Source of the DNA: Botryllus schlosseri
Lineage: Eukaryota
Reading direction: 5' to 3'
DNA length: 64,000 nucleotides
Assembly (NCBI GenBank): GCA_051294905.1
Contig: CM119371.1
Coordinates: forward strand, 39,744,001 to 39,808,000
Below are positions 24,749 through 55,596 of the stretch, piece after piece (within the stretch, counting starts at the first letter, position 1; each line of letters begins with the position of its first letter). The position numbers and the translations under genes are program-made. The notes beneath the pieces were generated by a model. It saw only the letters and a program-made list of their open reading frames with translations. It was not told where the DNA came from and did not search any database.

Positions 24749-25401
24749 AAATAAATTAACATTATGAAGTTATTGTTTCGCGTTAAACCAAAATCATTGA
24801 GCACCATTCTTTGATCTGCGTTGACCCAAGACGTTGGAAGCAACGAGGTAATTGTTGATGGTGAACGGATGTCAAAGCGTCTGCGGCCAATGTCTTACTT
24901 GGAGCGGCGTCACACCATCGCAGTGATAAGACATATGATGTGATCTGCGAACGCTCTATCCTACAACAGATCAAGACGCATGTCACTCCGTGTTTGTGGT
25001 GGTGTTTAAATTTGCGCGCGACTTTCAATTCGCCATCACTGACATGAGAGAAATATGTTAGATGGACTTTCACGAAGCTGTGCAGCATATCACGAGCGAC
25101 TGCGTGGAACGACTTCATCGCCACATTTCAGCCCCCCCCCCCCCAAAAAAAAAAAACATGTTTCATGTTGAGTCGCGTGAATAGCGTACTAGATGCGGCA
25201 TAAAATTGTAGCATTCACACTCTTATCACCATGAAACTCGCGCTCGCTCGCTCTAGTATCATTAAAATCGCAAATACCGTTCCGTAAGTTACGAACAAGT
25301 GACGATAGGATGATGCGTTGGGTTGTGGAATCACTATTTTGTTCATCGGATCTATAACGTAAGAACCAGAAGACTTTAATTGTATAGTAGATAATTTTGA
25401 T

Positions 25402-26584
25402 GAGCTTCTTGGAGGTACAGAACTACAATATACAATTGAATACTATATTCATATTAAAATGAACCCGAGTATTTTCGGCTGACACTCGTCAGGGGTAATC
25501 GTCAGCATGCTGGTGACGTCATATTTTGTTTTCTGTTGATATACAACAGGGGCGGGCAACATACGGCCCGCCGACAGTTTCCCGTCGTAGGTGATAATGT
25601 GGCCCGCCGGCCGGTGTCCCGTCAATACCGAGAAAACCATTACCGAGAATGGACATCACGAAGAATGGACATTACCGAGAATGCAATGTAGGCATGTTAT
25701 GCATATATACAGGTCGTGTGCATGTGCATGGCGGCATTGCCACATTCGGTGTCGATTCTCAGATATAAATTTTTCAACAACGCCTTTTCAGTAAGTTATT
25801 CTTGGCATTGGCCGTTCTCGGCAATGTCCATTCTCGGTACTGGTTTTCTTGGCATTGCTATAGAATCGTAAATGCTACTAATGCAAGTCTACTCGCTTCT
25901 ACTGACTTACGCGTAAGCTCCACTCTCACACGCTGCGCACACACGCAAATAATACCATACAGTCACTAAAATTTGACGAAGGAAGCAAGTATAGTGGGGA
26001 CTCTCGGCAGACTAGGGCCGCGGGGGTTCTATATCAATACCGAGAAAACCATTACCGAGAAAGGACATGACCGAGAATGCGTGCGAGAGTGGAGCTTATG
26101 CGTAAGTTCGTCGAAGTGAGAAGACTTGCATTATCGGCATTTACGATGTATTCAACCCTACTGAATTGATATCTTCGTAAGTTTTGGGTACCGGGCTTAT
26201 CGAACGCCTTAAAATCTTAATTAAGGATCGCACCATGTGTTGATTGAAAATGGCGGCGCCTGTATGACAATGGCGTTCTCAAATCCACATTGTCTTCGTC
26301 ATTATCGACAAGAAATGGCTTCGAAATGACATTGCTATCGTTACAATACATTCATTACATGCGATTTGTTCCTTGTATATGTCGATGAATGGGCGAATAA
26401 TGTATCGATTCAGCTATTCGGCCCGCAAAGTACTTAATTTCCCCACATCCGGCCCGCCGACTGGAGAAGTTGCACGCCCCTGATATACAATGTTCTTTCC
26501 AATTCTCTACCAGTTGCTGACGATTACCCTGACGAGTGTCAGCCGAAAATATTGGGGTTCATTTCAATATGAATATACTATTCA
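25402..26584. mobile_element. palindromic hammerhead-bearing element, copy A (putative non-autonomous Penelope-like), expanded by a nested hAT MITE
   Basis: Inverted arms with hammerhead motifs at 25463-25496 (-) and 26526-26558 (+); one-sided tail GAGCTTCTTGGAGGTACAGAACT; flanking direct repeats ATAATTTTGAT/ATCATTTTGAT. Confidence 0.65.
25547..26482. mobile_element. hAT Buster/Charlie-like MITE nested in copy A
   Basis: CAGGGGCGGGCAAC...GTTGCACGCCCCTG; perfect TSD ATATACAA with central TA (25539-25546 and 26483-26490); GGCCCGC motifs. Confidence 0.88.
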
Positions 26585-26814
26585 ATCATTTTGATTTTAT
26601 AGTAGATCAACGTAATCACTTGAACGAGTGCTACAAGTGTGCAAATCTACTTGAATACTTTGAAAAGCAGAAGTACTTAAATACTGACCCGCTCTGTATA
26701 CCATATACTACCTATACAAGATTGTCATTGACAATGTGGTCACAGTTATGGATGATTGAGTTAGTGACCCGCTTTCCTACGCAGTGATACTACCTGTTCT
26801 GTGATGTGTGCAAC

Positions 26815-27024
26815 TGTGACGGGGTGCCATCTATGGCGACTGATGACGTCACGCCTGTAGACAATGCGCTCGCCTGAGATAACCGCAACCTTCTGGGATA
26901 TTCTGTTTTCTGTCCGTGCTGTGTGGTACACGCTTTGTCGTCAATATAACTGTTACGGTATCTGTCTGGCTGTGAACTGATTTACACTTGAAGAGTATAA
27001 AGAACTAGTAGCGACACCGTTACA
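26815..27024 (+). repeat. 5' LTR
   Basis: TGTGACGGGG...CCGTTACA; differs from the 3' LTR by one substitution and one 5-bp indel as read by eye. Confidence 0.97.
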
Positions 27025-27026
27025 AT

Positions 27027-27041
27027 TGGCGAGAACACCAG
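27027..27041 (+). promoter_or_regulatory. putative primer-binding site
   Basis: TGGCGAGAACACCAG starts 2 nt after the LTR end; TGG complements the tRNA CCA end. The cognate tRNA was not determined (TGGCGAG is compatible with an Arg tRNA end). Confidence 0.7.
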
Positions 27042-27093
27042 TCTTCAAGTCAACAACCAGCGATCAGTGCTACAAGACTATACCGGTATCGAT

Positions 27094-28614
27094 ATGGATT
27101 CATTGCGTGAAGAGAATGAGTATCTGCGAGCAGAGTTGGAGCGGGTTCATCGCCGGATCGACGATATGGTGGAAGCCCAAAACAGTACCCTCAGTCGTGT
27201 ATTAACCATTGTACAAAGTTTGGGAGGTGAGAGTATGTCTGCAGCCCCGAATGCGGATGGATGTGTGTTTGACAGTAATGATAATGGTGACATGGGGGGA
27301 TTTGTTGATATGACTGACAGTAAAACTGGTGTGATGTCTCCAGAACCACAGTATGTAAATGATAAAGTGCGTGTTACTCGTAACAATTCTGTACACCCCA
27401 CTCCATCTAGTCATAGCATGCTCAAACCCGCTGTTGGTGTTATTAAACTGGAACCATTTGATGGTGTGAATATGCCCATTAGCGATTATTTGTGTCATTT
27501 TGATGCGGTGACATTGGCCAACGGATGGGACGAACAAACTGCTTGTGCTAGGCTTAATGCTAGCTTACGTGGTAACGCTTTGCAAGTGCTTGCACAAATG
27601 TCGGCTGATTGCCGTCGGGATATTGATCGTGTAATTGCCCAATTGCAGAAGCGCTACATTCCATGGGGTATGGAAACCTTGAGCCGTACTGAATTTAACA
27701 AACGTAAAATGAAATTGGGAGAATCCCCAACAGAATTCGCATCAGTTCTGGCTACGCTTAGCTTGAAGGCTTTTCCACGTATGAATTCTGCGGCTCGTGA
27801 TGAGTTTGTGTGTCAACAGTTTATCAATGGTCTTGGTGATATTAACCTTCGCCGACAGCTAACATTGATGAAAACAAGTAACCTTGATGAACTAGTTGCT
27901 TCTGCGGATTTGTATTTCTCTGTCGATGGACCGCCTAACAGTCAATTGTTCGAAACTAGTAAACCAGTTGTGGCTCCTGTAGGTCTGAAACCAAAAAATG
28001 GCGCTGAAAGTCTTGCAGTAGGCAAGCGTGATAATGAGATGGAATCGAAAATTGACAAGCTGATTGACCTAGTTAGCAACCTAGTGACTGCCAGAAATCA
28101 AGCACCGATGAGTAGGCCTAGAAGCCCTCCCTATCGAAGAAGAGTAACATTTGGGTATGGACCTTGCCATAACTGTGGAGTGACTGGACACATTCACAAA
28201 AACTGCCCAAACTCCCATTGTGCTAACTGTGGCCAGTTGGGCCACCTTCTAGTTGCCTGTCCCAATAGGAATGGAGATGGTGTTCCACCAGTCACCCGTG
28301 AACATGATGCCCCACCAATCAGGCAATTCTTTAAACATGCCATAGCAGACCATGGGTCCGATGGCGCTGCTCTTATGGATATGGACCAGGATTTGGAAAG
28401 ACTTATGAATTTTGTTTGTGCGCTTCGGCTCACATCTAGCTGGTACACCGTTGCATCGGTGAATGGCAGTCTGTCAGCTAAACTTTTGGTAGACTCAGGC
28501 AGTCCCCGTACCTTCCTAGACTATGATTTGTACACTCGACTGTATGATATAACTGATTTGAAACCATGTGATATCCCATTTGTTACTGCTTCTGGTGGTC
28601 CCTTGGAGCTATAA
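27094..28614 (+). CDS. gag: Gag (capsid-like region, two CCHC zinc knuckles) plus N-terminal half of the aspartic protease
   Basis: First ATG at 27094; CHNCGVTGHIHKNC and CANCGQLGHLLVAC at 28165-28260; protease active site LVDSGS (DSG 28492-28500); ends at an in-frame TAA within the protease. Confidence 0.93.
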   Translation: MDSLREENEYLRAELERVHRRIDDMVEAQNSTLSRVLTIVQSLGGESMSAAPNADGCVFDSNDNGDMGGFVDMTDSKTGVMSPEPQYVNDKVRVTRNNSVHPTPSSHSMLKPAVGVIKLEPFDGVNMPISDYLCHFDAVTLANGWDEQTACARLNASLRGNALQVLAQMSADCRRDIDRVIAQLQKRYIPWGMETLSRTEFNKRKMKLGESPTEFASVLATLSLKAFPRMNSAARDEFVCQQFINGLGDINLRRQLTLMKTSNLDELVASADLYFSVDGPPNSQLFETSKPVVAPVGLKPKNGAESLAVGKRDNEMESKIDKLIDLVSNLVTARNQAPMSRPRSPPYRRRVTFGYGPCHNCGVTGHIHKNCPNSHCANCGQLGHLLVACPNRNGDGVPPVTREHDAPPIRQFFKHAIADHGSDGAALMDMDQDLERLMNFVCALRLTSSWYTVASVNGSLSAKLLVDSGSPRTFLDYDLYTRLYDITDLKPCDIPFVTASGGPLEL

Positions 28615-31600
28615 GGCACAGTGGTGTTGACCCTACGTATTGGTGAATTTTGTGCACAACAAGAGGTTGTGATTGCTCGTCTGGGTGCGCCATATGGCTT
28701 GTTAGGGTGTGATTTTATGGAGAAGCATGATGCTGTTTTGTACATGGGTAAAGGAATGATGAGTTTGCATGGACAAAATGTTATATTGCAACAGCTGTCG
28801 GTGTCTTGTTGTGGTGTTATAACTCAGAAACAGATAATAGTTCCTAAGTGGAGTGAAAGAGCTGTCATGGGTGCTGTGAGTGGGCCTTGGTTGCCGTCCG
28901 TTTCACAGTATGGTGTGGTTGAATCTTCGCCTGTGTTTGAGTGCCAGTATGATAATCGTGGTTTGCGTGTGTTGTCCGGTTTGGTCGATCCTACATGTAA
29001 TGAGGTCCCTGTAATGTTTATAAACCTATCTCAAAATGATATTGTAATCCCTGCTGGGGAACGAGTAGGCTCTTTAGAGCCCCTTGCGACTTGTGGATCT
29101 GTGGCGGCGCGTGACACCGTGGAAGTTGAACCGTGCTTGGATCTGCCAGACCATCTGCGACACCTCGTAGAAGAACCAGACCACTTGAATGTACAACAGC
29201 GACAACAGTTAAGAGATCTTCTCATCAAGTATCAGGACATATTCACGGGGCCTGATGGGAAATTGGGATATACCACTTTGATTGAGCACAATATTATGCT
29301 ATCTTCTACAGTACCAGTTAAGGTGCCTCCGCGACGTTTGAGTTGGAAGGCACGAGAAATTGTGGGTGAGCAGATCAAAAAGATGGAAAAACTGGGCGTT
29401 ATCGAGAAGGCCCAAAGCCCGTACAACGCGCCGATTGTTCTGGTTCCAAAGCGGGATAACACGTACCGTTTCTGCACCGACTTCCGGAAATTGAATACAA
29501 TCACGGTAAAGGATGCCCATCCTCTGCCCCGCATTGATGATATCCTGGATTCTCTGGGTGGGGCAAAATGGTATTGTACTCTTGATCTTGAATCCGGTTT
29601 TTGGCAAGTTCCCCTGAATCCAAGTGACCGAGACAAAACTGCATTCAGCGTACCTGGGCATTCGCAATTTCGATGGACAGTCCTTTGCTTTGGCTTGTGT
29701 AATGCGCCCGCCACGTTCATGGCAATGATTGAGAAGTTACTTGATGGACTCTTGTGGAAGAAATGCCTTGCCTTCATGGACGACATTTTGGCGTATGGGG
29801 AGAACTTTGACCAAACACTCTGCAATCTGGAAGATGTTTTCAAGCGAATTCGTGACGCTGGTCTTAAGCTTAAGCCTAAAAAATGCAAACTGTTTTACCA
29901 GGAGGTGGAGTACCTGGGACATGTGATTTGCCCAGATGGTCTCAAGTGTAGTGATGACAAAGTTTCTGCTGTAAAGGATTGGCCAGTGCCGAAAAATCTC
30001 AAGGATGTTCAAGCGTTCCTCGGCACGGCAAACTATTATCGAAGATTCATTGACCAGTTTTCAACCATTGCAGAGCCATTGGTGAAACTCACTCGGAAGA
30101 AAGCTACCTTTGAATGGTCCGATGATTGTCAAGCGGCATTCCGCTCTCTTAAACAGAAATTAACAAGTACACCAATATTGGCTTATCCGCTTGAGACTGC
30201 AGGAGAGTTTGTTCTCGATACTGATTGCTCTGGCTTTGGTGCAGGAGCAGTCCTCTCCCAATTACAGGGAAATGAAGAAAGGGTTATTGCGTATGCCAGC
30301 AAGACGCTAAACAAGCAACAGAGACGATATTGTGCCACCTTCCGGGAATTATATGCTGTACAGTGGGCCGTGAATCATTTCAGGTCCTATTTGTGGGGAA
30401 GGCCATTCCGGCTGAGAGTGGATCACAGCTCTTTACAGTGGTTGTACAACTTCCGGAACCTAGAAGGCATTACGGCGAGATGGGTCAGCATGTTGGATAC
30501 GTTCAACTTCAAAATTGAACATAGAGCGGGGGCAAAGCATGGCAACGCAGATGGACTTTCCCGCATCAGACGTAAATGTGAAAGGGATTGCTGTGTTACA
30601 TGCGGAGACAAGCCGGACATTGAACCAACATGTTTCCTACCCGGATTGGAAGTGACTGCTATTCTACCAGGTCCTGTAAGCAGCGCTGATGAGAGAATGT
30701 GCTCTTGGCTGGAATCATATAGTCCAAGTCAACTTAGAGAACTGCAGAGAAAGGATGAATGCATATCAGTCGTACTGAACTGGAAGGAGACGAGAGATGA
30801 TGCTCCTAAAGGCATTGAACTTTTACCATATCCAAGGGATGTCCGCACCCTATGTATGCAATGGAATGTCTTGCGAGTTTTGGATGGCGTCTTGCACCGA
30901 GAATTTTTGTCACAAAAACCGGGCAATGTTGAGCTCTTTCAAATTGTGATGCCATCGAGCTTGCGTAAGGATATCTACCGGTTACTCCATGAATCGAGAA
31001 CAGGCGGCCATCTTGGCAAAGAGAAAACTTACAAAAAAATTCGATCAAGATTTTACTGGCCAAATATGCATAGACAAATTGCTGATTGGACCAGGTTATG
31101 TAAACCGTGCTTTGCTGCAAAAACGCCATTACGACAACATCAGGCCTACTTGCGCAAAATGCCATGTGCAGAAATCATGGACAGAGTTGGCATTGATCAC
31201 ATTGGACCATTACCATTGTCTGAGAACGGCAATGAGTATATATTATGTGTTACGGACTATTTTAGTAAATTTGTGGAAGCATACCCTGTCAAAGATGTTA
31301 AAGCTGTAACTACCGCGGAGGCGCTGGTCAATCAATTTTTCACAAGATATGGTGTTCCATTCACCATTCATTCTGATCGTGGATCCGCATTTGAATCTGA
31401 GCTGTTTCGTCATCTCATGAAATTGTTCGAAATTGACAAGACTCGAACAACATCGTACCATCCACGTAGTGATGGTCTGGTCGAGAAATTTAATGGGACT
31501 TTGCAAAAAATGATAAAAACGTTTTTGGGGAATGGAAATCGCAATGATTGGGAGGACTACATCCCTTATCTGTTGATGGCATACAGATCCACGGTTCATG

Positions 31601-32130
31601 AGAGTACAGGGTACACGCCCAACCGACTCATGTTTGGGAGAGAAATTTCCCTTCCCACAGACTTGATGTTTGGAAAACCATCTAACGAACTGTCGTTCGA
31701 GTTTTATCATGAATATGTACAATGGGTCGAATCAACAACATCTGATGCCTTTACGTTTGCAAGACAGCAGCTGTCGAGATCTGCTGAGAAACAGGAGCGC
31801 AACTTTAACCTCTCTGTTAAACCAGCCACATACTGTGTCGGCGATTTAGTCTGGTTCTTCTATCAACCCTTGGTGAAGAAATTGTCCAATGGGTGGGTTG
31901 GACCATTCAAGGTCATTGAAGTGAAATCGCCATACCTGTACCGAATCGAGAACTTGGACAATGGGCAGTGCAGACTTTCGCATGCTGATCATATCAGACC
32001 TTATCTGCTGGAGACGCGGGAATCATCGCCCTCTACATCAGATCCTGCTGCTGACGATACGACGCCAACCACCACTCGTGCGGGCCGACAGATCAACAGA
32101 CCTGGTCGTCTGCAAGACTACATAACGTGA
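28615..32130 (+). CDS. pol: Pol, same frame after the TAA: rest of protease, RT, RNase H, integrase
   Basis: GLLGCDF (protease end); RFCTDFRKLN, LDLESGFWQV, FGLCNAPATF, FMDD (RT); LDTDCS, RELYAV, HGNADGLSR (RNase H); H..H..C..C, GIDHIGP, IHSDRG, GLVEKFN, GPF (integrase). No env or chromodomain seen. Confidence 0.97.
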   Translation, partial: GTVVLTLRIGEFCAQQEVVIARLGAPYGLLGCDFMEKHDAVLYMGKGMMSLHGQNVILQQLSVSCCGVITQKQIIVPKWSERAVMGAVSGPWLPSVSQYGVVESSPVFECQYDNRGLRVLSGLVDPTCNEVPVMFINLSQNDIVIPAGERVGSLEPLATCGSVAARDTVEVEPCLDLPDHLRHLVEEPDHLNVQQRQQLRDLLIKYQDIFTGPDGKLGYTTLIEHNIMLSSTVPVKVPPRRLSWKAREIVGEQIKKMEKLGVIEKAQSPYNAPIVLVPKRDNTYRFCTDFRKLNTITVKDAHPLPRIDDILDSLGGAKWYCTLDLESGFWQVPLNPSDRDKTAFSVPGHSQFRWTVLCFGLCNAPATFMAMIEKLLDGLLWKKCLAFMDDILAYGENFDQTLCNLEDVFKRIRDAGLKLKPKKCKLFYQEVEYLGHVICPDGLKCSDDKVSAVKDWPVPKNLKDVQAFLGTANYYRRFIDQFSTIAEPLVKLTRKKATFEWSDDCQAAFRSLKQKLTSTPILAYPLETAGEFVLDTDCSGFGAGAVLSQLQGNEERVIAYASKTLNKQQRRYCATFRELYAVQWAVNHFRSYLWGRPFRLRVDHSSLQWLYNFRNLEGITARWVSMLDTFNFKIEHRAGAKHGNADGLSRIRRKCERDCCVTCGDKPDIEPTCFLPGLEVTAILPGPVSSADERMCSWLESYSPSQLRELQRKDECISVVLNWKETRDDAPKGIELLPYPRDVRTLCMQWNVLRVLDGVLHREFLSQKPGNVELFQIVMPSSLRKDIYRLLHESRTGGHLGKEKTYKKIRSRFYWPNMHRQIADWTRLCKPCFAAKTPLRQHQAYLRKMPCAEIMDRVGIDHIGPLPLSENGNEYILCVTDYFSKFVEAYPVKDVKAVTTAEALVNQFFTRYGVPFTIHSDRGSAFESELFRHLMKLFEIDKTRTTSYHPRSDGLVEKFNGTLQKMIKTFLGNGNRNDWEDYIPYLLMAYRSTVHESTGYTPNRLMFGREISLPTDLMFGKPSNELSFEFYHEYVQWVESTTSDAFTFARQQLSRSAEKQERNFNLSVKPATYCVGDLVWFFYQPLVKKLSNGWVGPFKVIEVKSPYLYRIENLDNGQCRLSHADHIRPYLLETRESSPSTSDPAADDTTPTTTRAGRQINRPGRLQDYIT

Positions 32131-32287
32131 CATATTTTCATCATTTTGTCGTTCGATTTTCACAATCCGTTGTCCTAACCATTTGTATTTTCGTTGCTTT
32201 TTGAGCTTTTACGCCGAAGTATTTTTGGTGTATCGTTGCTTTTTGTTTTAAGGTAGATATTTTCTCATGTACCATTCGAAAAAATTT

Positions 32288-32298
32288 GGAGGGGGGAG
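32288..32298 (+). promoter_or_regulatory. polypurine tract
   Basis: GGAGGGGGGAG just upstream of the 3' LTR. Confidence 0.88.
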
Positions 32299-32300
32299 TA

Positions 32301-32515
32301 TGTGACGGGGCGCCATCTATGGCGACTGATGACGTCACGCCTGTAGACAATGCGCTCGCCTGAGATAACCGCAACCTTCTGGGATATTCTGTTTTCTGTC
32401 CGTGCTGTGTGGTACACGCTTTCTACTGTCGTCAATATAACTGTTACGGTATCTGTCTGGCTGTGAACTGATTTACACTTGAAGAGTATAAAGAACTAGT
32501 AGCGACACCGTTACA
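32301..32515 (+). repeat. 3' LTR
   Basis: Direct repeat of 26815-27024. Confidence 0.97.
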
Positions 32516-34476
32516 CAACGAGGTGTCGCTCCACCTGCGCGCCCATCCCAGTGAATATGCGGCGATATTGATACACATTACCATGTGGATAAAAACGACA
32601 TAATGCATTTCGACGGGCGCGCAATTTCGATCGTCATCATCTTCAATTAAAACTGGATGTAGGTATTTCACTTCATTATCAAATCTATTTTTAGAATTTA
32701 CATACTTTAATGCTTCTCATACCTGTCATTCTACTGACCATTTCCCATAGCAGCCGGAATCGGTGACGGCGCCACAGAAAACTCACGAATAATAATAAAA
32801 AGTTACTGCCATCCGAGTTACTTTTGACGTTGTCTTGAATCACCACCATATCAAATTGTATTTGAGTGGAAATATTGGCATTTGTTAATTTATATTCGAG
32901 TAGCTACGGCGATTATTTTGAAATATATATATATGTTGTTTTGACTGTAAAGGTGGTTTGTTGTCGCATTTTGCCACCTTGGACTCGTGCGTCTAGCGCA
33001 GTTCTTCATGGTCGGATTATGAGCGTACATTTTAACAGATATCAAGGTTATCGCTTCTTACTTGCAAACGGACGAATGCTCTTTATAAACACATAATCTT
33101 ACACAAACTAAGCTATCTTACCAAAACTTGACCTCGACACGAGCTGTTCCCGTTTGTGTGGGATTGGCCAAAACCAAAGTCTTACAACGTCTTCTAATTC
33201 AGTTATGGAACGTATTTACATTTAGGCAATTTTTGATAAAGGTTTCAGTAAAAGCTTGCAAGAAAAATAGAAAAATTTGCGATATAAAACTCTTACAAGC
33301 AGCTCAAAACATCATACTACATAAATTAGCAGTATTGAGGAAGCTGCCGGAAGCTGTTAAAATGTTGCATAAGTTGCATTAAGCTTGCCCTAGTGATCAC
33401 TGAAAGAACAGGGATACGTTACCTAAGATTACTTTACTAGCCTACTAGTTAACAACGTGCGCTGTAAGCCCTGATGACTTCGATTGCGAAAAATTCATCT
33501 TTACCTTTATTGTTACCTCGTCTGTTTCAAAAGTTGTTTTACAAAGCTAAATTCATTAGGGTTTATTTGTGAGGCGAATCAGTGTTTTGAAACATGAAAT
33601 TTATAAGAATATTAACTGAAACTTTCACCACTGCCTTCGACTCGCCCTCGCCACTTTAGAACCAAGTGGCATTCGATACAAAATCTCAATTCCTTCACTA
33701 TATAGGCATATCTGTGACTAACAGAACAGTAAATACGTTTCGCTTATTGCTTTTGGCAATACCTGTTTAGAATGTTTTGTAAATAGGTATTCTGTATTAC
33801 ATTTCAATGATGGCAAATTATTTGATGAGAGTTATAGCGAATCGAAGCAAATATGAAACGTTTGTAACGGGACATTCGCTAAAAATAATTGATCATATCT
33901 GGCGTCTATACTATATGCCTGGAACTGAAAACTGACAATAACTAGCATACCTTGTCTGCCGACATCCTCATTCAAAAGCACTAGCATTACACTTATACAT
34001 TCAAACAGCAGCAAAGCAGGATGGTGCTAATAACAATCTATCTTCCGTGGATATGCGTCTAATCAGTCTCAATAATTACCTACGCGTGTATAGTGGTTTG
34101 ACAGAACCGTCGTGGTGTGGTTCATAGCAATTGAGGGATAAAATCCACATTTAATAGTAGTAAAAATTTAAAGATGCCTATAGAGCAGGCCTGTATCGAT
34201 ATTTCTACGAAGGGTCATATTCTTTTTCGCCGGCAGACCGGTAAGACCGTCGTATATCAATATGGGATTGTTGGAACCCTCAAAATAGTCGGTTCAACAA
34301 CCATAGTACAATGTTAATCGACTATCGGCTCACAATCCAATATTTGTGACGTCATGGATTCAAAACAAAAAAATACATGTTTTAAACAAGGGCCATGATT
34401 TATACATGTTTTTTAATTTGATCTTTGTTTTAAATGCAACCCTACTAGTACAAATGCGACTAGTATCGCAATTTTT

Positions 34477-34964
34477 CAGAGATGAGCGGATTCGGAATTT
34501 CTATGTCCTAATCCAATCCAAATCCGAAGCATCAAATCCTAATCCAAATCCTAATCAAGATCTTTTGTATGTTCAAGTCCATGTCCAATCATAATCCGAT
34601 ACCAACTTGAAATTCGGAAAAAAATGCTAATTTATGCAAGAGAGGAATTGGGAATATTTCATTCACAATCAGCAATTCTCTTGAGTTACGATAACTTGTC
34701 ATAGGGCTGCCCTTCTCATGCTCATTGGCACCAACCGCCATCAAGTGTATCATGGTGTGGTGTGCCATAAGTACATTAATAACTGATCTGAATAAAGTTT
34801 GTCGCCATTCACTACAGAACATCAATATCCCAGAAAATCGGTAAGTTCAATCCAAATCCTAATCCGTTCAGAAATAAATCTCTAATCCTAACCCAATCCA
34901 AATCCGACGAAATTTCACAAATCCTGCTTTTTCAAATCCTAATTCTAATCCATGCTCATCTCTG
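34477..34964. mobile_element. non-autonomous hAT-like MITE, CAGAGATGAGC family
   Basis: TIR CAGAGATGAGC...GCTCATCTCTG; TSD CAATTTTT/CAATTTAT (7/8); AATCC subterminal arrays. Confidence 0.87.
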
Positions 34965-38326: not shown

Positions 38327-41300
38327 GGTGGCCTTCTACGTTCTAAGAATAATAAAAATCTGCTCACAATACGGAATTGTTAATCTCAAACGATTGATTA
38401 ATGTATTTTAAATTCAATACTACACATTTCATAGCATGAAAATGCTGTCAATAAACTACAATAAATCACCAAGATATCTACTACATTGTTCCACGGTAAA
38501 ATGTAGTTAATAGTCATTAACAATATTCTACTTGATCATGATGAGCTGTTGATAATGCTGAGAGTTATTTCAGATCAATCACAAGGTATCTGTCAACAAC
38601 ACCGATGTATGAACTGCCATTAGTGAATCATTATATTTCAGTGGAGAGAGAACAACGAATCAAATTCATACGATTATTTATCAGAAAGTTTGATCGTTAT
38701 GTGTTGAGATTCGGCCGTATTGTGGGTTAACTCTAGTATATCATGTTATTGAGATTTCAAATAAAGAGACTTTTTGGGGTACAGAACTTTAATATACATT
38801 TTAATAATATATTCATATTAGAAATATATCAAAACCCGAAGCTTTTCGAGCGAACACTCATCATGGGTAATCGTCGGCATAATGAGAATTTCAAAAACTT
38901 GCATATAACTACATTGCATACAGCCAATTGTGAGGTCATAGAAACAAAACATCAAGTGCAGACAAACCGCGAGCGCAGCTAGTGGCCGATTTTTAGCTAA
39001 AGCAAACGTTCCTTCTGCTGGCATAAGCGTGGTTGATGGATCTTAATGAATGTCCATTCCAGCGCGGACAAGTGTGCGGCCTTTACCCAAAATTGAGAAT
39101 CTGTCGTCACTATAGTTATTGGCGCAAGTAGCATGCTCAGCTAAATGCCTGCCAAATATTACCGAGACCATAAGACAGCTCAAAATGTGGGGAAGCACAA
39201 CTATGTAGGTATAGGTCGCATATAGAATCCTAAATTGACTTTGACATTGGAATTCAAAACCTACCTGAAACCGCAATATATTTTGCATTTTTTTACATAT
39301 CATATTTTTTTTATTTCATTTCAAATGGAATTTCTATTTCAATCCATCACACCAAATATAGAGACATCATACACTAAACATTCAAAATATTCAATTTTTC
39401 TCTTATTTTCAGTTTGTTTTTTGCTTATATGTACATTTTAATGTATTCAATTATCTCGAAGCTATAAACAGCAAAAAAGCACTAACACATATTAAGATTT
39501 TGATATGTATATGCACGTGACTTCTTACTACAACAATGATGAAAGATTGCATAAACGGTAAAGTGAGATCGAGGAAGTAACATCACGAAAATACGAGGTC
39601 GTACCAGCTAATATAAAAGTTGGTCAATAGCACTGGTTGACATTTTTCAACATTTTTGTTGCGAAAGATTAATTGAGTTTACCTAATTTGACGTTGCTGA
39701 TTCCAAATTTGCCATCTGAATTCACTCATCATGTCACAATTTTTCGCAAATCAAAGAAAAATTCTACTCAAAAACGGGGGCGTTATGCCCGTTTAGGTCC
39801 GTATTGTTATGTTCGTGCATTTACGTTCAGTGTTGTTTCACTCCTAATTTCTATAGGACTAGTAATTACCGCCAATCATTATTTCCTCGTGTGTCGTGCT
39901 TGTATTTATACCCTTTGTTCTGTTGTCTCGTGGTCTTTCATTTAACTGAACTCTGGATCGTGTCGCCTGTCTTAAAGTTATACTGCTGATAATATACTGA
40001 TTTCTTATTGCAACCTCGTCGCATTGAGTTATTGTTCAAACAAGATCAAGAACATAACACGTATATGATACAAAACACATCTTACAAAGCTCTCAACTTA
40101 CTTTATTGGATTTACAAAAGAATGAAATCATGCATCATAAAGGCTCCAACTGTACTGTAGCGAAACATCGGTTACGTTTGAATCGGTTAAATTAAGTTTC
40201 CCGGAACGGCAATGCTATTTGTCGAATGGTTAAGCTTTGCGCAACGTTTTGCTATGCAATTCAAAAATGCACAATATAAATAGTATGGTAGAATGAATCA
40301 CATGTTCATTTCATCAATGGAGCGCAGAATAGTCAGTTCGAGCTTCTAAATACAACGTATTTTTTCTGTTCTTCGCATCTCAGATTGGTTGATGGGAAAT
40401 TGTACGTTCTTGTGAGGCATAGGCCTTGTCGGTGTCAACATAGGCATCGTCGGTTTCGGATTCGCTGGTATCGCTGTCTTCGGTTTCGGATTCCGATTTC
40501 CAAGCCTGTCTGAAAAACAAATAACACTGAATATATATCTTTATTAAATAGACTTGTCTGCAAAATATTTGGACGCTCGAGATGGACCGGGCAACAGGGC
40601 CAACTCGCCCCATGCACTCTTCCCGAAAAGACTGAAGAGCATGAATCCACACCTGAAAAGCCCAAACGAAGGGTACATGAAAACATAACCTAACTATCGT
40701 GTCCATAGATTCCAAGTGCCTACGTGCATATCTTCCTATGTTCATATTTGTATGTATAATTTTGGTTAAGCTGCTGTAGTCGATTTATACTGCGGTATAA
40801 GTCTGAGGTAGGTTAGGTTTTCGTGTACGTCATCTACAAGTATATTAGAGCTTTCTTATGTGATATCAAACTAGATGCAATAACATTTTTTAATTGGTTT
40901 TCGCAGTTTCGCATCATCATCCCGTCATGTATCAGAATAGAAAACGATTGTGTCATTGAGTACAACATTAGGTCGATTTTGATGTAGAGCCCTCTCCTGG
41001 ATTTATACTAACGCAGAATAGTTCCCAATTATCTTTGGCACACCATCAATTTAATTGAATCATTTTATTCGTTTTATTCGGTTTAAGCATTTACCAACAC
41101 ATCGTACCTCAGAAAGCGACACTGACAGCCGGGCAGGAGTACTGGTTAGAGAATTCTATTGACAGTTTACATTTCGTGAAGGCAAATTGCCGTGTAGTTG
41201 ACAATATCGAGTACCGATGACACTTGGAAAAGTAGCTCAACACTTTCTTCCTTTGAAAGTGTCTTTTTCATGCAATAGCATTATCTGTATGAGTGGAAAC

Positions 41301-41327
41301 GCCATAAAATGGGACGTGTATTTCATC

Positions 41328-44429: not shown

Positions 44430-44479
44430 ATTTCATCATCCAGGTAAACCGAACTTGGCGATGATAAACGTTCTGGTGA

Positions 44480-47800: not shown

Positions 47801-48915
47801 TGCCATTCACGACCACATTTCGATTACTGATGTCGCCCATAGGACCTCATTATACGACATATTCGTAACGAACTAATTGGATGCCAAGTATCCATGTTAA
47901 ACTGGCCATGTCCATTTCTGCTGAACTCCGGACTAATCTATTTATTCATTCCGGCATACTATGAGTAATTTCTGGGACCTGCCATAGTCGCGCAAGTCGC
48001 GAAATTTTTTTCACATTCTGGCATGACTTTCATTACTATTATTAGTTGTTTCACATATTACTATCAAACATTTGAATAGTATATTCATTAAGGTTGTCGA
48101 AAATTTGAAAAATCTTGAAAATACTCCGTGACTGTGTCTCATTCTATAGATTATTGATAAAAACAACAATGAGGATACTGTAAAAATCTCACAGGAAAGC
48201 GGTTAAGATTTCGATCAAAGCGTTTGAAAGTAGCTGCCTAAGAATGGGCTTGCCACCGATCATAGAACGGCGAGAAGACAAGTAATTATATAACCAGGTC
48301 TCGTGATTGGCTAATCGGCTACGCTTCAATGATCATGACAGCAGCAGCTTACTGATCAGGTGTTCTACTCTTACGAGAATGAAATCTGATTACAATTTTG
48401 AATGATATCTAGATCGGATATAAAACGAAATTTGATTTTTGTTGTACATCCTCGGCATCTAATTCTATTATTTATTTGCAATTCAGTAATTTTAACTACA
48501 ATCTAATTTGGAAAAATTTGTCTAGCTAGAACAATTGAAACCCGATTTATAAAAGCTGAAAGTTTTCTAAAGTCTAACGATAAGATTCAGTTCGAAGCGA
48601 GTTTAAGGCTACAAGTTAAGTCAAGTATTCTAGTAGATAAGATTAGTAACGAAGTACTCCTAAAATTTCCGAGTACTAGGGGAGATTTTGCTTACTTACT
48701 CTGCTTACTCGAGTGGCCATGTTTCCACTTGCACTTCTGCTCAAGTTTTCAAGGCAAAACAACTCACTTTCGCAATCTCAATATCGTACAAAGTGGTTTG
48801 GTGATGTTTGCATCAGTTTTACATAGGACATTTTGGTAAGAAAGGCTTGAAACAGCCTCTGTATCACGGTAAATGAATATGTATTCAAAGACTGACCTAT
48901 TTTTAGGCTCATTAG

Positions 48916-49327
48916 CAAGGTTGAATAACTAGAGTCGCGATTATTTGGTGACTAGACTTGGCTTTGAAGAATAGTAAAGTCCCAAATTAATGGGATTTCG
49001 TCTATTAGTCCTGATACTTGGAAAATAGGGCCAGAAACTGTTAATACTGCGGAAAATTACGATATTTTGAATGCGAGCCATTCTATATCACTCGAGCAGA
49101 GTTAAAAAAAGTGGGTTGAGTCGGATTGAACTCAGAACTGAACAGTAAACACAATGAGTTGGACTCTGACTCGAGTCAAAACACCATGACTCGAATTCGA
49201 CCATCTATTGGCTGACTTGGAGTTGACTCGGTGAAGAATTGAAAATGACTCGACTTGACTCGAGTAATAACTATAAAGAGTGTGATCGTCTTGTGACTCG
49301 GAACCTTGCGACTTGGTTACAAACCTG
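48916..49327. mobile_element. CAGGGTTGTAA-family MITE, degraded
   Basis: Ends GGTTACAAACCTG; internal similarity to 37208-37696 and 54374-54930; flanks CTCATTAG/GTCATTCG. Confidence 0.72.
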
Positions 49328-49468
49328 GTCATTCGTCATTTTGAGATGTCCGCGAATATGATCCTTGCCATTTCTAAAGCAGACACCTTACATGGGCCAC
49401 AATGTAGCGAATTCTCAGCCAGATCTACTTTCAAAACAAATTCCTAGAGTGCTTTATGAAGCTTCATT

Positions 49469-49804
49469 AGAATAGTATATTCAAATTGAAATGAACCCGT
49501 ATATTTTCAGCTGACACTCGTCAGGGGTGATCGTCAGCAACTAGTAGAGAATTGGAAAGAACGTTGTATATCAACAATTTGTGTACCATCTAAAAACAGT
49601 ACATTGAGCTCGAGCGCTCTCTCCGCCCGATTAGTAACAATTTCATGAAGGTGACCTCATATTTTGTGATATGATTGCTGATATATGATGTTCTTTCCAA
49701 TTCTCTACTACTTGCTGATGATTCCCCCTGACTGAGTCAGCCAAAAATATCCTGGTTCATTTCAATATAAATACACTATTCAATTGTATTGAAGTGCTAG
49801 ACAT
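49469..49804. mobile_element. palindromic hammerhead-bearing element, copy B (tail on the right)
   Basis: Inverted arms; hammerhead motif at 49495-49528 (-); degraded motif in the right arm; tail CAATTGTATTGAAGT...; CTTCATT repeated on both flanks. Confidence 0.6.
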
Positions 49805-51829
49805 CTTCATTCCCTACTTTCAAGTCTTCAAAATTGCTCATTCTACTTGTAATTGACTAGAAATGTACAGCGTTAGTCCTGCTTTACACTAGTACTTATA
49901 CAGACCGACAAGATCACATCTGGATGCATAATAGTGCAGATAACAAGATACGATATCTCACATATCCTTCACAGTCATATCTTTCAAAATCTGGCAGTAG
50001 CCCACATTCCAGACAGCTGATCGTCCCACACTTAGGAAGACAAGAGAATAGCCCCTGAACACAAAATCCACCAAATTACCAGCTATAAATAGTCAATCAA
50101 ATGGACCAAGTTATCAGCTCTACGGTCAATCCCTGCATCATATTTGAATATTTGAAAGCAAAAATCGTGATATGGAGAATATATAACGAAACATATTCTC
50201 ATTCATAGTATATTGCCAAGGTGTAAAGACCATGCCTGCACAAACTACAATGTAGTTCAGTTGAAGGTTAACTAAATACTGTTTTTAAGTGGTCCTAGTT
50301 TCAGTGGCGTGTTTTGAATGAGATTTGTTCTAGTTCTTGTTCTTTAAAAAAATGAATTAGTACTAGAAAGCGCGTGCCATCGTTAGGCATATAATCAGTA
50401 GCGCGATTTTCTTTACATGTCATAAAAATTCAAAATTAGGTCAAAATTGTGACATTAGGTTAGGTTTACTATATTTCTGTCACCCAAATTACAGACACTC
50501 TTTAGCGTTCACTAGTGGATTTCGAAATGAGTTATGAGCACATTGTCTGTCAATATGACGTCACACTTGCAAAGATAAGCTTATAGACCTGAAACGGTCA
50601 CGACCCGGTTCAGAATATGTGGCTGTGTGTTGTGTAACCGGGACCGAAACCACATTTTTTCAGCCCTCTCCCGCCCAAATAAACAATGATTTTAGGCACA
50701 TCATAGGGTAATCGATGCAACTTCTGCGGGGCTTGCTATATGCATCTGGTCATTACATTTTTTGAATGAATTCTGTCAATGATATTGTTTCCTATATGTA
50801 TGACTATTGGTGACTACTGGTTCGTCTCTCCGCCCACATGATCAGGGTTAGAGGCAGAATTGGTAGAGGACGATGACTTCGAAAATACAGGGAGCATAAT
50901 TGTACATCGATAAGTCAAGTTCATGTCACACCGACAAGATTTTATCAGCGTTATGCCGGTGCGCACCACACAGCTTTATAAACACCCCACATCAAGTGGT
51001 TTCCAACCTTTTATGATCGCGCCGTCATCCAATTTGAAAATGTTACTTGGCCCAGATCATAATTTGACGAGCTGATGACTAAAACAAATCAGCACCTTTA
51101 CCCAGACTTAGACCTGGGTTATTTTGAAATCTGATTACGCTCAACATGTTTGCGAAGCCCAGAATAAAAACAAACGACCCCCATGTTTGGAACCACTCTC
51201 TTTGAATAAAGCATTTTATCGGTCTTAACCATGTCTATGAATATACCGTTCTCCTATAATTGTGATTACAATTAGGCTTATTTCAGTAAATGAAGGTCGT
51301 TTTTAGTTCTATTTTATTGCATTTTTTTCGAGAGTGGCAGTCCCTTTAATTAAAATCAATTATTGTGATAGTAAATCGCGCGCAGTGCGAAGGAAAATGT
51401 CATGTAGCATAAATATCCTCCAAAATAACATTCATATGTTGATTTATGATAAAATTATGAGCCTACGTCAAGCCTTCAAAATTGCGGATATTTAGGCGGA
51501 TTTCAGAAATTCCTTCCGGACGCAAGTTTGAACAGTGAAATGCCGGACATGTTCCGGGAAATTCCGGACGTGTGGCAACCCTACGTTAGGGCAACAAATG
51601 AACTTCCTTTCTCTATTCTTGACAAGCTACTTGATTAGGGCATACACTTTCTACCCGAGAATGTAGCAAAGTATCTTTCGTTGTGTTACAAATATTTTCA
51701 TCATTTCTACCATAATGCGTAATGTAACTGCTGGAATTCTTCATAGGGCTAGATTTCGTTTAAATGAAACTACTTCGTTAGGACAGACAGTTCCAACCAG
51801 AAATGAAGATAAGTAGTACAATTCTAACA

Positions 51830-52156
51830 TTTGAAGAGCTTCTTGGAGGTACAGAACTTCAATATACAATTGCATAGTATATTCATTTTGAAATGAACCC
51901 GGATATTTTCGGCTGACACTCGTCAGGGGTAATCGTCAGCAACTAGTAGAGAATTGGAAAGAACATTGTATATCAACAATCGTATCACAAAATATGACGT
52001 CACCGGCATGAAAGAGAGAGCATTCAATGTAGGCTACTATTTTCAGGTGGTACACGAACACGCTCTCTTTTCCAATTCTCTACTAGGTGCTGACGATTAC
52101 CCCTGACGAGTGTCAGCCGAAAATATCCGGGTTCATTTCAATATGAAAATACTATT
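51830..52156. mobile_element. palindromic hammerhead-bearing element, copy C
   Basis: Near-perfect ~90-bp inverted arms; motifs at 51897-51930 (-) and 52099-52132 (+); ~40-bp left tail; 11-bp direct repeat CAATTCTAACA (51819-51829 and 52157-52167). Confidence 0.72.
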
Positions 52157-52189
52157 CAATTCTAACACTATGTGGGAAAACACCTAATT

Positions 52190-54230
52190 TGCATATCTTA
52201 GGTCAAAAATGTCAAATTTCTGATTTTAGGTAAAAAAAATTGCCCTACCAATGACTATCATGCAGTTAACGAGTGCACCTACCTAGTACGATACGCTTCC
52301 AGTTCCCAGGACATGAAATAATCCCCGCGTATGTTAACAACCTTTCCAAATAAACCTGTAAAGAGGAAGAATCAGGTTACTAATGGCACCCATAATCCAT
52401 ACAAAGATCATTAGCAACGTACCGAGAAGCAATCGATACAATCAAGAGGTGATTTGAAGTTTGAAATATATAAAAAAAAAACGGTGTATCGGATTGGAAT
52501 ATCGACCCATATATATTGATATGCATAGTTTTTTGCCGATGACAATATTTTACGGTTAAATGGATGTGGACTGAGGAATATAAATACAACAATATGAGAG
52601 AATGTCATTTTAATATACTGGCGTGTCACTCATTCTTGATGAAGTAGCGGTGTGCTCATTAGGAATATTCAAAAATAAGATTATTTTCAAATTTTACGGC
52701 CTACTTAATAAAATTGTTTGATTGCCTGAAAAATAAACGCTGCGAACAAATTTTGGCACAATTCCAATCCAACCAATAGAAGGATTGCTATATAAGAAAA
52801 AATACTGTTTTGGATATATTTAATAAAAATCAATATAAAAATTTTGCTTGTTACCCCATAAAATTTGAAGGTTGTATGAAGAAACGATGCACAACAAATT
52901 TGGCTCAATTGCAAACAGTAGAAGCAAAGTTATTGGGGTGAAAAAATTTGGATGAGAATAAAATAGTATTTACGGTGACTAACTCTTTAATTATTTACTA
53001 TAAAATCATGGAATTAGAAATTTTTCTACCGCGATAACTTCTCTTCTACTGGTTGGAATTGAGCTAAATTTGGTTTGCATCATCTCTACTGACAGCCTAA
53101 CAATTTCGTGGGGTAGGCAGAAAAATTTGAAATTTTATTTTTTATATTATAGGCCTAAATTCAAAACTTTCTACTGCAAGAATCTCGTTTCCACTGGTTG
53201 GAATTGTGCCAAATGTGTAGCGCAGCGTTGTTTTAACCGACCTAACAATTTTATCACATAGCCAGTGAAATAGGAATAAAAATTTTTTTTTGAACATCTC
53301 TAATGAGCACTGTGCAGTTACACAGACATACAATTGGGACAAGCAGGCATAAGCTGTTTGAGGACTCAAAAAACTACCGTGTTACTGTGTTAATTTGCCT
53401 ACATTAGGTCAAAATTAAGATTTTAAAGGTAAAAAATGTTCAAATTCTTATTTTTTAGGTAAAAAATGGCCGTAGTAATGACAATCATGCAATTAACGAG
53501 TTCACCTACCTAGTACGATACGCTTCCAGTTCCCAGGACATGAAATAATCTCCGCAGTTGTTAATAACCTCTCCAAATAAACCTGAAATCAGAAGCAACC
53601 AAGTTACTAATGGCACCAACAATCCGTTCAATGTTCATTGATAGCGTACGAAGATGCAATCGATACAATCAAAAACTGATTTGAAGTTCAAAATATTTTT
53701 TTAAATGTACCGGATTAGGATATCGACGCATGTATATATTGATGTACCGGTATATAGTTTTTCCGCCGATGACAATATTTACCGGTTAAATGGATGTGGA
53801 CTGAGGAATATAATTACAACAATATTAGGGAAAATCATTTTAATATACTGGCGTGTCCCTCATTCTTCATGAAGCATCGGTGTGCTCATTAGGACTATTC
53901 AAAAATAACATTTTTTCAAATTTTACGGCTTACCTGATAAAATTGTGTGATTGCCTGAAAAGAAAAACGCTGCGAGCCAATTTTGACACAATTCCAACCA
54001 ATAGAAGCATTGCTATATAAGAAAAAATACGGTATTGGATATATTTAATAAAAATCAATATAAAAATTTTGCTGTCTACCCCATGAAATTTGAAGGTTGT
54101 ATGAAGAAACGATGCTCAAAAAATTTGGTCCAATTCCAAACAGTAGAATCAAAGTTATTTGAGTACAAAATTTCTGGACTTGTAAAAAATAGTATTTACA
54201 TTAGAAAACTCTTCAATTGTTTACTACGGT
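52190..54230. repeat. two diverged direct copies (~0.8 kb) of an unclassified repeat
   Basis: ~52190-53000 and ~53395-54230 share long blocks, e.g. CACCTACCTAGTACGATACGCTTCCAGTTCCCAGGACATGAAATAATC; related CCAAATTTGGCTCAATTCCA motifs also occur at 62415-62700 and 63525-63720. Confidence 0.8.
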
Positions 54231-54373
54231 ATGGATCCACCCCCTTGTAAATACTATGTTTTGAAATCCAAAATTTTGACCATCAAAAACTTCGCTGCTA
54301 CTGGTTGGAGTGTAGCCAAATTTGTTGAGGTTTTGCTTTTTTAGACAAACTGACAATTTTCTGACGTAGCCAG

Positions 54374-54930
54374 CAGGGTTATAATGAATCGAGTCACGAT
54401 TTTCTGATGACTCAAATTGACTCAAGTCATTTTCTCTAAATACGGAAATGACTCAACTCGAGTCAATTTGTGTATTGACTCGACTTAGAATCGAGTCAAT
54501 GCGCACGACTTAACCAAGTCATAAGAATCGAGACACAGATGGCCAAGAGTGACATTTCATTTTAATATTGAAGAATGTACCGTACTGTACAAAAAGTAAA
54601 CACACTATTGGGATTTCCTCTGTTGGTACTGGTGGTAGCCTTCTTGAAAATGTGACCGGAAAATGCTAAAAGTGAGGAAATTGGTATACTATAATTGCGA
54701 ACCATTTGATATCACCAAACAGAGTTATAAAAAATGGGTTTACCAAGACTTTAACCGGAAACTGAACAGTCAACACAATGACTTGGACTCGAGACAAAAT
54801 ACCATGACTCGGACTTGACCCTCTGCTCTCTGACTTGGACTCGAACTTGACTCAGTGGTGAATTGAAAATGACTCAACTCGAGTCAAAACTATAAAAGTG
54901 AGATTGACTTGTGACTTGGTTACAACCCTG
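54374..54930. mobile_element. CAGGGTT-family hAT-like MITE
   Basis: CAGGGTTATAA...TTACAACCCTG; TSD GTAGCCAG/GTAGCCGG (7/8); GACTC/GAGTC motifs. Confidence 0.83.
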
Positions 54931-55338
54931 GTAGCCGGTAAAATTTGAAAAAACTCAGGGTTGTTTTTCCACAGCTTTCTTCTTATATAGCAATGCTTCC
55001 ATGGGTTGAAATAGAGCCAAAATTGGACCTCAATTTTCATCAAGCAGACAGTAAAATTAAAGAAAATTTAAACCGCCTCATTGGAACATGTCTTAGAAAT
55101 CAATACTACATAAAATGTACGGCCTTACTTCTACTTTTACCGGAGAAACGCTTTTCATCACTTTCAAGTGTTTCACGAATGCAATTTTATCGGTAATCGA
55201 TGACAAAACGAATCAACCTTACAACGTGTTCTGTCATGGGGATCGGGCGGTAACGTAGAACAAACAAAGCAGTCTTCCAGGAATTACAACTATTAGATCT
55301 GCTATCGCATGATCATTGATCAGCGGTCTGATAGAAAT

Positions 55339-55596
55339 TTGAACAATATATTCATACTGGAATAAAGCCAAGTATTTTTTTGACTGACACTCGCCAGGGG
55401 TAATCGTTACGAACTAGTAGAGATTTAAAAAGAAGTTTGTACGGTAGTTTATATCAACAATCGTGACGTCATATTTAGCGATACAATCGTTGATACACAA
55501 TGCTCTTTCCAATTCTCTACTAGTTGCTGACGATTACCCCTGACGAGTGTCAGCCGAAAATGTTCGGGTTCGTATTAATATGAACATACCATTCAA
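55339..55596. mobile_element. palindromic hammerhead-bearing element, copy D (no tail seen)
   Basis: Inverted arms homologous to copies A-C; left arm degraded, right arm with a complete hammerhead core. Confidence 0.62.
55536..55569 (+). ncRNA. minimal type I hammerhead ribozyme motif
   Basis: ACCC-CTGACGA-GTGTCAGCC-GAAA-ATGT-TC-GGGT: stem I ACCC/GGGT, all core nucleotides, UUC triplet (predicted cut after 55565), quasi-palindromic stem III AATGTT. Confidence 0.6.

Follow-up and report, generated by a model that had tools for sequence, protein, structure and literature searches.

Palindromic hammerhead-bearing repeats of Botryllus schlosseri as truncated inverted insertions of a Penelope-like element with paired long and short ends

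Palindromic copies in the window

The stretch analyzed here, called the window throughout, comprises 64,000 nucleotides of the Botryllus schlosseri genome (GenBank assembly GCA_051294905.1, contig CM119371.1, positions 39,744,001 to 39,808,000 of the forward strand). An original prediction made from this sequence had placed in it four palindromes with inverted arms, and all four (copies A to D) are present in the window sequence at the predicted coordinates, together with a fifth, decayed copy (E). They are almost certainly truncated inverted insertions of a Penelope-like element (PLE). Each palindrome consists of two 3' ends of an autonomous element, truncated to varying extents at the 5' side and placed head-to-head, and in the genomic samples complete pairs almost always join one end that carries a short tail (the long end) to one that lacks it (the short end). 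The features are given below with window coordinates, strand and, for the arms, positions relative to the ATG of the open reading frame (ORF) of the element; TSD stands for target-site duplication.

25391..25401, plus strand: copy A, left TSD, 11 bp, ATAATTTTGAT, one mismatch against the right copy
25402..25507, minus strand: copy A, long-end arm including the tail, about -54 to +55
25492-25472, minus strand: copy A, hammerhead core of the long-end arm
25506..25546, plus strand: copy A, short-end arm, part 1, -123 to -79
25547..26482, no strand assigned: nested hAT-like non-autonomous element inside copy A, ends CAGGGGCG...CGCCCCTG
25539-25546 and 26483-26490: 8-bp duplication ATATACAA flanking the nested element
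26483..26584, plus strand: copy A, short-end arm, part 2, to about +18
26529-26549, plus strand: copy A, hammerhead core of the short-end arm, position 17 = G
26585..26595, plus strand: copy A, right TSD, ATCATTTTGAT
38764..38906, minus strand: copy E, solo fragment of a long end, decayed, 78% identity with the young family
49466..49578, minus strand: copy B, short-end arm, -93 to +18, hammerhead core 49524-49504 with U16.1 lost
49578..49798, plus strand: copy B, other arm, about -171 to +31, 80% identity, disrupted core, tail recognizable in part
51819..51829, plus strand: copy C, left TSD, CAATTCTAACA
51830..52059, minus strand: copy C, long-end arm, -175 to +57, with the last ORF codons, 3' untranslated region (UTR), ATG and tail
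51926-51906, minus strand: copy C, hammerhead core of the long-end arm, U16.1 = C
52069..52156, plus strand: copy C, short-end arm, -73 to about +14/+19, hammerhead core 52103-52123 with U16.1 = C
52157..52167, plus strand: copy C, right TSD, CAATTCTAACA
55339..55464, minus strand: copy D, left arm, 74-75% identical, core broken, no tail
55463..55596, plus strand: copy D, right arm, -116 to +17, 90% identical, hammerhead core 55540-55560

Copy A is long because the hAT-like element of ~936 bp, with its 8-bp duplication, splits its right arm; we take this element to be hAT-like from its end sequence and the length of its duplication. It holds TACCGAGAA-type repeat arrays, and such arrays are also found at 22893-23039. 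The left arm of copy C reaches the final codons of the ORF, FVYHLKIV in the window translation. As had been described, the direct repeats lie outside the tail, both in copy A (25391-25401 and 26585-26595) and in copy C (51819-51829 and 52157-52167). The decayed tail attributed to copy B can be followed as far as about +31 and is lost beyond that point, so this claim holds in part. A clear TSD was sought for copy B and not found, and the same is true of copy D, neither side of which carries a tail. U16.1 is kept in four of the eight window arms, the number first noted, and none of the eight matches the full hammerhead motif of the family.

The autonomous parent element

The 26-nt hammerhead core has 4,410 exact matches in the 495-Mb genome and the 29-nt tail has 1,564; the reversed controls gave none in either case. 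The 30 best genomic matches to copy C extend inward to variable degrees into one common sequence, which translates as the C-terminus of a reverse transcriptase (RT)-endonuclease (EN) protein, and longer genomic copies contain intact ORFs. At locus L031 an ORF of 845 amino acids (aa) runs from an ATG within a unit of 2,683 bp (~2.69 kb). Its start, MNILF-NCILKFCTSKKLF, is the arm end plus the tail, the tail being codons ~7-19 of the ORF. The original prediction had suggested looking for arms joined to an ORF with RT and GIY-YIG-type domains, and L031 provides an intact one.

RVT_1 (E=7.7e-9) was the sole Pfam hit of the 845-aa protein, with no direct GIY-YIG match in that scan, and a PDB search with the protein gave weak RT matches only. 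A homolog 60% identical to it carries a precomputed PF01541 (GIY-YIG) annotation, and the C-terminal motifs VYEY..C.C..YVGRT, R, H, H and E are conserved across 19 aligned proteins; in the same alignment no CxxC motif was found in the RT-EN linker. An RT followed by a C-terminal GIY-YIG endonuclease in a single ORF is the layout of EN+ PLEs. The linker is not zinc-finger-like and the EN is not N-terminal, as in Penelope/Poseidon and unlike Neptune/Nematis and Naiad/Chlamys, according to the linker and EN-position criteria for PLE clades set out in PMC8557442. The genomic copies also present the insertion habit of PLEs, namely partial tandems that form pseudo-long terminal repeats (pLTRs), an inverted 5'-truncated copy, a tail of 30-40 bp and a TSD. 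By the criteria of PMC8557442, as applied to its predicted protein, the element is a canonical Penelope/Poseidon-type PLE, the clade being assigned by domain layout; the homolog matches bore no family names.

The arms vary continuously in length, the shortest measuring a few tens of nt and the longest >2,700 nt, more than one unit, and the truncation points differ in every copy except segmental duplicates. Since the arms consist of coding and UTR sequence of an RT element, the copies are neither miniature inverted-repeat transposable elements (MITEs) nor a defined non-autonomous family. The original prediction was right in refusing the MITE label (the tail lies between arm and TSD, and the arms are RT-derived), in proposing a Penelope-like origin (the ORF is contiguous with the arms) and in describing an inverted pLTR pair with a one-sided tail within the TSD. 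In place of its non-autonomous family stand 3' fragments of random length, derived from an autonomous element whose ORFs are intact in this genome.

One long and one short end per paired insertion

In a survey of 40 sites the 3' ends, counted from the ATG, lay either at +14 to +23 or at +46 to +57, apart from one outlier at +28 and one misparsed site. Three samples of insertions were then scored for the ends that they combine. The hammerhead-selected sample, taken as the first 100 hammerhead-core matches on contig C1, contained 41 head-to-head pairs, 34 of them with both ends complete, as well as solo copies ending long (29) or short (29). All 34 complete pairs were long+short (33 once a segmental duplicate was removed), and so were all 14 complete pairs of the RT-selected sample. 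The tail-selected sample, a new set of 59 loci, yielded 27 long+short pairs (25 independent), 1 long+long, 4 other arrangements and 27 solos. Identical insertions at different places (L124/L129/L249; L251/L252; L007/L018) were treated as segmental duplicates and removed before the counts, which leaves 33/33, 14/14 and 25/26 independent long+short pairs. Under an independent choice of ends the probabilities are 1e-10 (hammerhead-selected), 6e-5 (RT-selected) and 4e-7 (tail-selected). The layout of one long plus one short end is near-obligate in complete pairs.

Target site and duplication

A TSD was present in 48 of 58 long+short pairs, with a length of 12 bp in 20, 13 in 12, 11 in 5, 14 in 4 and other values in 7. 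In mismatched-flank controls a TSD of at least 12 bp was never obtained (0/300), and in the tail-selected sample the duplication measured 12 bp in 12/28. The duplication of ~11 bp originally reported is correct for copies A and C; the genome-wide mode is 12. Solo copies showed a TSD in at most 26/78, some of these being spurious internal repeats.

In the 12-bp frame, C precedes the TSD in 19/36 cases and G follows it in 20/36, against a background of 20% (p ~1e-5 for C and 2e-6 for G). C-N12-G is a symmetric site, such as a dimeric nuclease leaving 12-nt 3' overhangs might produce.

Arm geometry and a probable shared template

The genome contains several haplotypes of the element, and both arms carried the same one in all 12 pairs with an overlap of at least 400 nt. 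The tail-less (short) arm extends further upstream in 29 of 56 pairs, by >50 nt in 17 of them, and the tailed (long) arm in 25 of 56. In those 29 pairs neither arm is a subset of the other, and therefore a simple fold-back of one cDNA cannot produce them. Tail-only stubs of 11-55 nt stand opposite long tail-less arms at L107, L032, L244, L257, L268 and L298. The 5' ends of the two arms lie <=30 nt apart in 19/56 pairs (null mean 5.5, maximum 16 in 20,000), some of them at -1,200 to -2,200. Such near-coincident ends are as expected if both cDNAs ran off one broken RNA, and fold-back fits them too. At L140:432-1208, L150, L250, L038 and L050 the second arm starts internally; at L140 its start coincides precisely with the point at which the first arm ends, a layout known from L1 twin priming.

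More-than-unit copies

Some insertions contain more than one unit of the element. The one at L230:1008-2550 (G000:C1:37767507-37769049) is a single short+long insertion with a 12-bp TSD, whose arms represent 2.16 and 2.14 turns of a 359-nt unit in which ORF position +208 is joined to -151. This unit is internally deleted, retains the hammerhead and both start sites, and its junction occurs four times at its own locus and nowhere else in the assembly; the contigs of four RNA runs, a set separate from the raw runs described below, neither bridge nor exclude it. At L242:4098-4974 (G000:C9) a 325-nt unit (+196 to -129) is repeated in both arms within a 12-bp TSD, and its junction occurs three times, always at that locus. 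The L242 insertion sits in an older short copy of the same element. On C16 (L237:2369 to L238:5758) one 12-bp TSD encloses an arm with 3.56 tandem full units, which differ by 0-3 bases per 2,686. The other arm of the C16 insertion is split by a 1.4-kb element with CAGTGGTT ends.

Near-exact internal junctions number only 18 genome-wide. Among the eight multi-unit loci with comparable segments or haplotype rows, seven hold one haplotype each, or nearly so; the exceptions to uniformity are the C12 locus, with differences of up to 20 per kb, and C17, which differs at a few sites. The mini-unit junctions of L230 and L242 are not located at the ribozyme cut. The more-than-unit copies fit rolling-circle copying, as proposed in PMC4209133, or repeated template jumps, and they may also have arisen by later unequal exchange. 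L230 looks like a retrozyme at birth. That a circular template operates in addition to twin priming is possible, at a little under even odds.

The hammerhead motif

As originally proposed, the motif reads as a putative minimal type I hammerhead, with CUGANGA and GAAA cores, A15.1-U16.1, H17, stem I and a palindromic stem III. Young copies read ACCC CUGACGA G..C GAAA AUAU UC GGGU, and UC stands at 16.1/17 in 88/96 sampled hammerhead-selected arms, so that the earlier worry about a missing U does not apply to the family. Three results weigh against a hammerhead: an Rfam scan of the window returned no hammerhead match at E<=5 (five unrelated weak matches were obtained), single-strand folding of the junction gave a minimum-energy fold other than the hammerhead (z -1.11), and ends do not gather at the predicted cut in RNA reads or genomic copies.

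The evidence from covariation rests on seven related metagenome loci, picked by eye from 31 3' UTRs as the closest relatives with the motif; five of the seven form one group, with U at positions 3 and 17. In these loci the 1-bp G-C stem II is kept and stem I changes coherently, and the stem III palindrome also changes coherently in related elements. Between loop II and the strand upstream of stem I, 5-7 base pairs can form; both sides of this pairing change between four sequence groups, and 0.2-3% of random 16-mers match equally well. The predicted ribozyme, a candidate for self-cleavage as a dimer, has a covarying pseudoknot. Lunse et al. are said to have described small PLE hammerhead variants, which may already include the form with a 1-bp stem II. 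Pseudoknots and 1-bp stems II occur in active hammerheads (PMC3088659). The 3' UTRs at L156, L164, L167, L185 and L186 belong to a related PLE group with a pseudoknotted 1-bp stem II hammerhead with U3 and U17, whose copies likewise have two kinds of end within the first codons, one short and one long.

The predicted cut lies 14 nt before the ATG, between the body of the element and both cDNA start sites, from which it follows that the integrated cDNAs would have been copied across uncut or re-ligated RNA. The ribozyme processing that had been suggested for these copies is not borne out, given that the cut lies inside the copied stretch and that 5' ends do not pile up at it. In four raw RNA runs, sampled at 3-6%, no read ends at the predicted cut. 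The reads are mostly read-through of dispersed copies: 66-98% of them run on into unlike sequence, and depth is near zero over the 5' part of the ORF. Two further possibilities were rejected. One was a clustering of 5' ends at the cut, since 0/59 long arms and 0/27 partners end at -13/-14 (L147, L130 and L127 do end there). The other was a preference of long arms for the ribozyme-dead change of U16.1 to C, seen among the best tail matches but in only 1/96 hammerhead-selected arms.

Proposed mechanism of insertion and alternatives

Published ideas for the inverted pLTRs, tails and tandems of PLEs comprise endonuclease resolution, antisense self-priming and a circular template. PLEs are telomerase-related, and the geometry of thousands of young insertions discriminates here among these ideas. 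We favor asymmetric twin priming, in which a staggered cut of ~12 nt supplies two 3' ends that each start reverse transcription on one and the same RNA of the element, and give it a probability of roughly 0.7. What the data show is the autonomous element, a tail made of codons, the pairing of one long with one short end, a 12-bp TSD, the C-N12-G preference and a haplotype common to both arms; the following steps would link these observations. A dimer of the RT-endonuclease would bind the first ~200 nt of the ORF and nick both strands 12 nt apart, leaving 3' overhangs. Each overhang would anchor by 1-5 nt of pairing at one of two start sites, ~55 and ~18 nt into the ORF, and both cDNAs would extend upstream over the uncut or re-ligated hammerhead until they stopped at random points or at the broken 5' end of the RNA. 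They would then be joined head-to-head, mostly over 1-4 shared bases, and filled in. Abortion of one cDNA would leave a solo copy or a stub of a few bases, and a circular RNA, or a jump of the enzyme from the 5' end of the RNA back to its 3' end, would give more-than-unit arms. The two opposed hammerheads would be a by-product of this geometry; being on opposite strands, they cannot both form active motifs in a single transcript.

The anchoring step can be compared with the junctions themselves. The match between primer end and RNA averages 2.1 and 1.5 nt against 0.57 and 0.46 in permutations, which is suggestive of microhomology, mainly at the long end. This excess is among several points that weigh against asymmetric twin priming, because it is inflated by the maximal extension of the TSDs and includes one misparsed short junction. 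The available part of PMC11167929, an in vitro study, reports neither a difference in start site between top and bottom strands nor homology between primer and RNA. Pairs with a partner ending upstream of +5 were set aside from the counts (7 hammerhead-selected, 5 RT-selected, 3 best-hit and 4 tail-selected), as were 2 more RT-selected pairs with one end continuing into the ORF. L247 is long+long, lacks a TSD and has arms 91% and 83% identical, possibly the outcome of two events; in the window, copy D is short+short and copy B is ambiguous. A shared haplotype would also arise from one active source locus per germ cell or from later homogenization of the arms, and a tandem source absent from the assembly could explain the mini-unit repeats.

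A more ambitious form of asymmetric twin priming would make it obligate, on a single and often circular RNA, with a dimer cutting C-N12-G and assigning one nick to each start site. Both cDNAs rolling round one template would give the inverted pLTR, the one-sided tail, partial tandems and multimers, and small circles closed at non-ribozyme sites (325 and 359 nt), copied likewise, would seed retrozyme-like arrays. We consider this form tentative, its chances falling somewhat below one half.

The alternative that survives best, though unlikely, is twin priming with a separate RNA at each nick, two transcripts of the same active locus, in which the protein dimer sets the asymmetry. If a single locus is expressed in each cell, this reading accounts equally well for the long+short rule, the TSD and the shared haplotype, and it spares the strand displacement that a common template requires. 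It does not readily explain the 5' ends <=30 nt apart in 19/56 pairs, nor the locus-unique junctions repeated in both arms.

Fold-back of a single cDNA, or self-priming by antisense RNA (PMC3846280), with a tail left by endonuclease trimming (PMC8557442), is clearly improbable. It would account for the identical haplotypes and for near-symmetric pairs with centers of 5-30 nt, and, according to a citation in PMC11167929, recognition by the D. virilis endonuclease depends on the tail. A folded-back copy must however be a subset of the first strand, which 29/56 pairs violate, and the tail-only stubs opposite long tail-less arms also speak against it. A version in which a long start precedes the trimming of one arm or the other may still hold.

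A separate non-autonomous family with inverted-pLTR structure, ribozyme-processed and mobilized in trans, appears very improbable. Most copies are indeed short and non-coding, the ribozyme motif is conserved, and the two mini-unit insertions resemble incipient retrozymes; nevertheless, arm lengths are continuous and differ in every copy except segmental duplicates, arms continue into the ORF, each mini-unit junction is confined to one locus, and no defined non-coding unit was found at several loci, as a non-autonomous family or non-LTR retrozyme would show. A cut-and-paste MITE with terminal inverted repeats (TIRs) beside an unrelated host repeat, suggested by the inverted arms and the fairly fixed length of the duplication, is next to impossible, as arms and tail together form an uninterrupted stretch of coding and UTR sequence from an RT element rather than TIRs directly abutting the TSD at both ends, the TSD lies outside the tail, and solos are as frequent as pairs.

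Asymmetric twin priming makes precise predictions that the existing in vitro system can address: each target molecule should receive one long and one short start, the 3' overhang should measure 12 nt, a single RNA should serve each insertion, and circles should be copied beyond unit length. In addition, PLE copies of this kind mimic MITEs and can be expected to be misannotated.

Relation to known elements

In L1 twin priming both target strands prime on one RNA, which gives an inversion inside the TSD; the arms adjoin without overlap, and the first priming event takes place on the poly(A). Here, in contrast, both arms begin close to one 3' junction, which is thereby duplicated. A few insertions (L140, L150 and L250) do take the L1 form, their second primer being internal.

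The insertion unit belongs to the same class as those of EN+ PLEs (PMC8557442), such as Pen2a_Av (PMC3846280) and D. virilis Penelope (PMC2377424). The inverted layout, the one-sided tail and the overlap of the tail with the first codons are in print in these three sources, and opposed minimal hammerheads ~100-700 bp apart on opposite strands have also been described (PMC4209133). In the accessible portions of the published EN+ PLE accounts the tail is presented as an optional feature said to result from endonuclease resolution, and self-priming is named as the cause of the inversion. In the present genome, the long+short combination was counted and is near-obligate, the TSD is ~12 bp at a symmetric site, and the geometry speaks against simple fold-back. 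Neither a counted long+short rule nor circle-derived insertions were found in a literature search, with key subscription papers and supplements outside its scope. The element and its layout are ordinary for PLEs; the addition is the quantitative record of long+short ends, target sites and arm geometry.

The closest experimental system is PAc, a Poseidon element of Anolis carolinensis, for which PMC11167929 reports in vitro two internal RT starts in the ORF that bound the tail, cutting and extension of both strands, a predicted dimer and a requirement for the first 172 nt of the ORF. According to the available part of that paper, hammerhead cleavage is dispensable for PAc, which agrees with the copied RNAs being uncut or re-ligated in our case, and no RNA-seq ends fall at the cut. 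PAc, as described there, shows no strand difference or primer homology, whereas the insertions counted here imply that each nick uses one start and that short homology is involved. Cutting is preferred at ATT in PAc and at C-N12-G here, and the hammerhead cut lies 26 nt inside the ORF in PAc and 14 nt before the ATG here (PMC11167929).

Minimal hammerheads of PLE pLTRs (PMC4209133; PMC6765202) are of type I with a 4-bp stem I, a palindromic stem III and G10.1-C11.1, as here. Further likenesses to PMC4209133 are the thousands of dispersed copies and the circular template proposed for more-than-unit copies; the difference is in stem II, with 6-8 bp in that report and 1 bp here, where the loop can pair with the upstream strand. 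In non-LTR retrozymes (10.64898/2026.07.22.740005) short units are arrayed in tandem and carry a type I hammerhead that derives from PLE pLTRs, and L230 and L242 resemble the birth of such elements. Unlike retrozymes as presented in that source, each mini-unit is restricted to a single locus and has not spread, and the window copies are not tandem.

Other features nearby

An intact-looking Gypsy/Ty3-type LTR retrotransposon occupies 26815-32515 of the window, with LTRs of ~210 bp that are 97% identical; its 537-aa gag-like and 1,171-aa pol frames are in the same phase, with one stop codon at ~28612-28614 between them. An AT-rich tandem satellite array of ~6.3 kb (~25% GC) extends over 56112-62412. 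Other long inverted or direct repeats of 70-89% lie at 1520-4299 and 52200-54327 and are probably older DNA-transposon derivatives. Elsewhere in the genome, two PLE copies are accompanied by coding fragments that we label from their motifs: at L003:443-1300 presumably a hAT-dimerization-like transposase fragment, and at L004, beyond 2240, a 297-aa frame that we take to be kinase-like.

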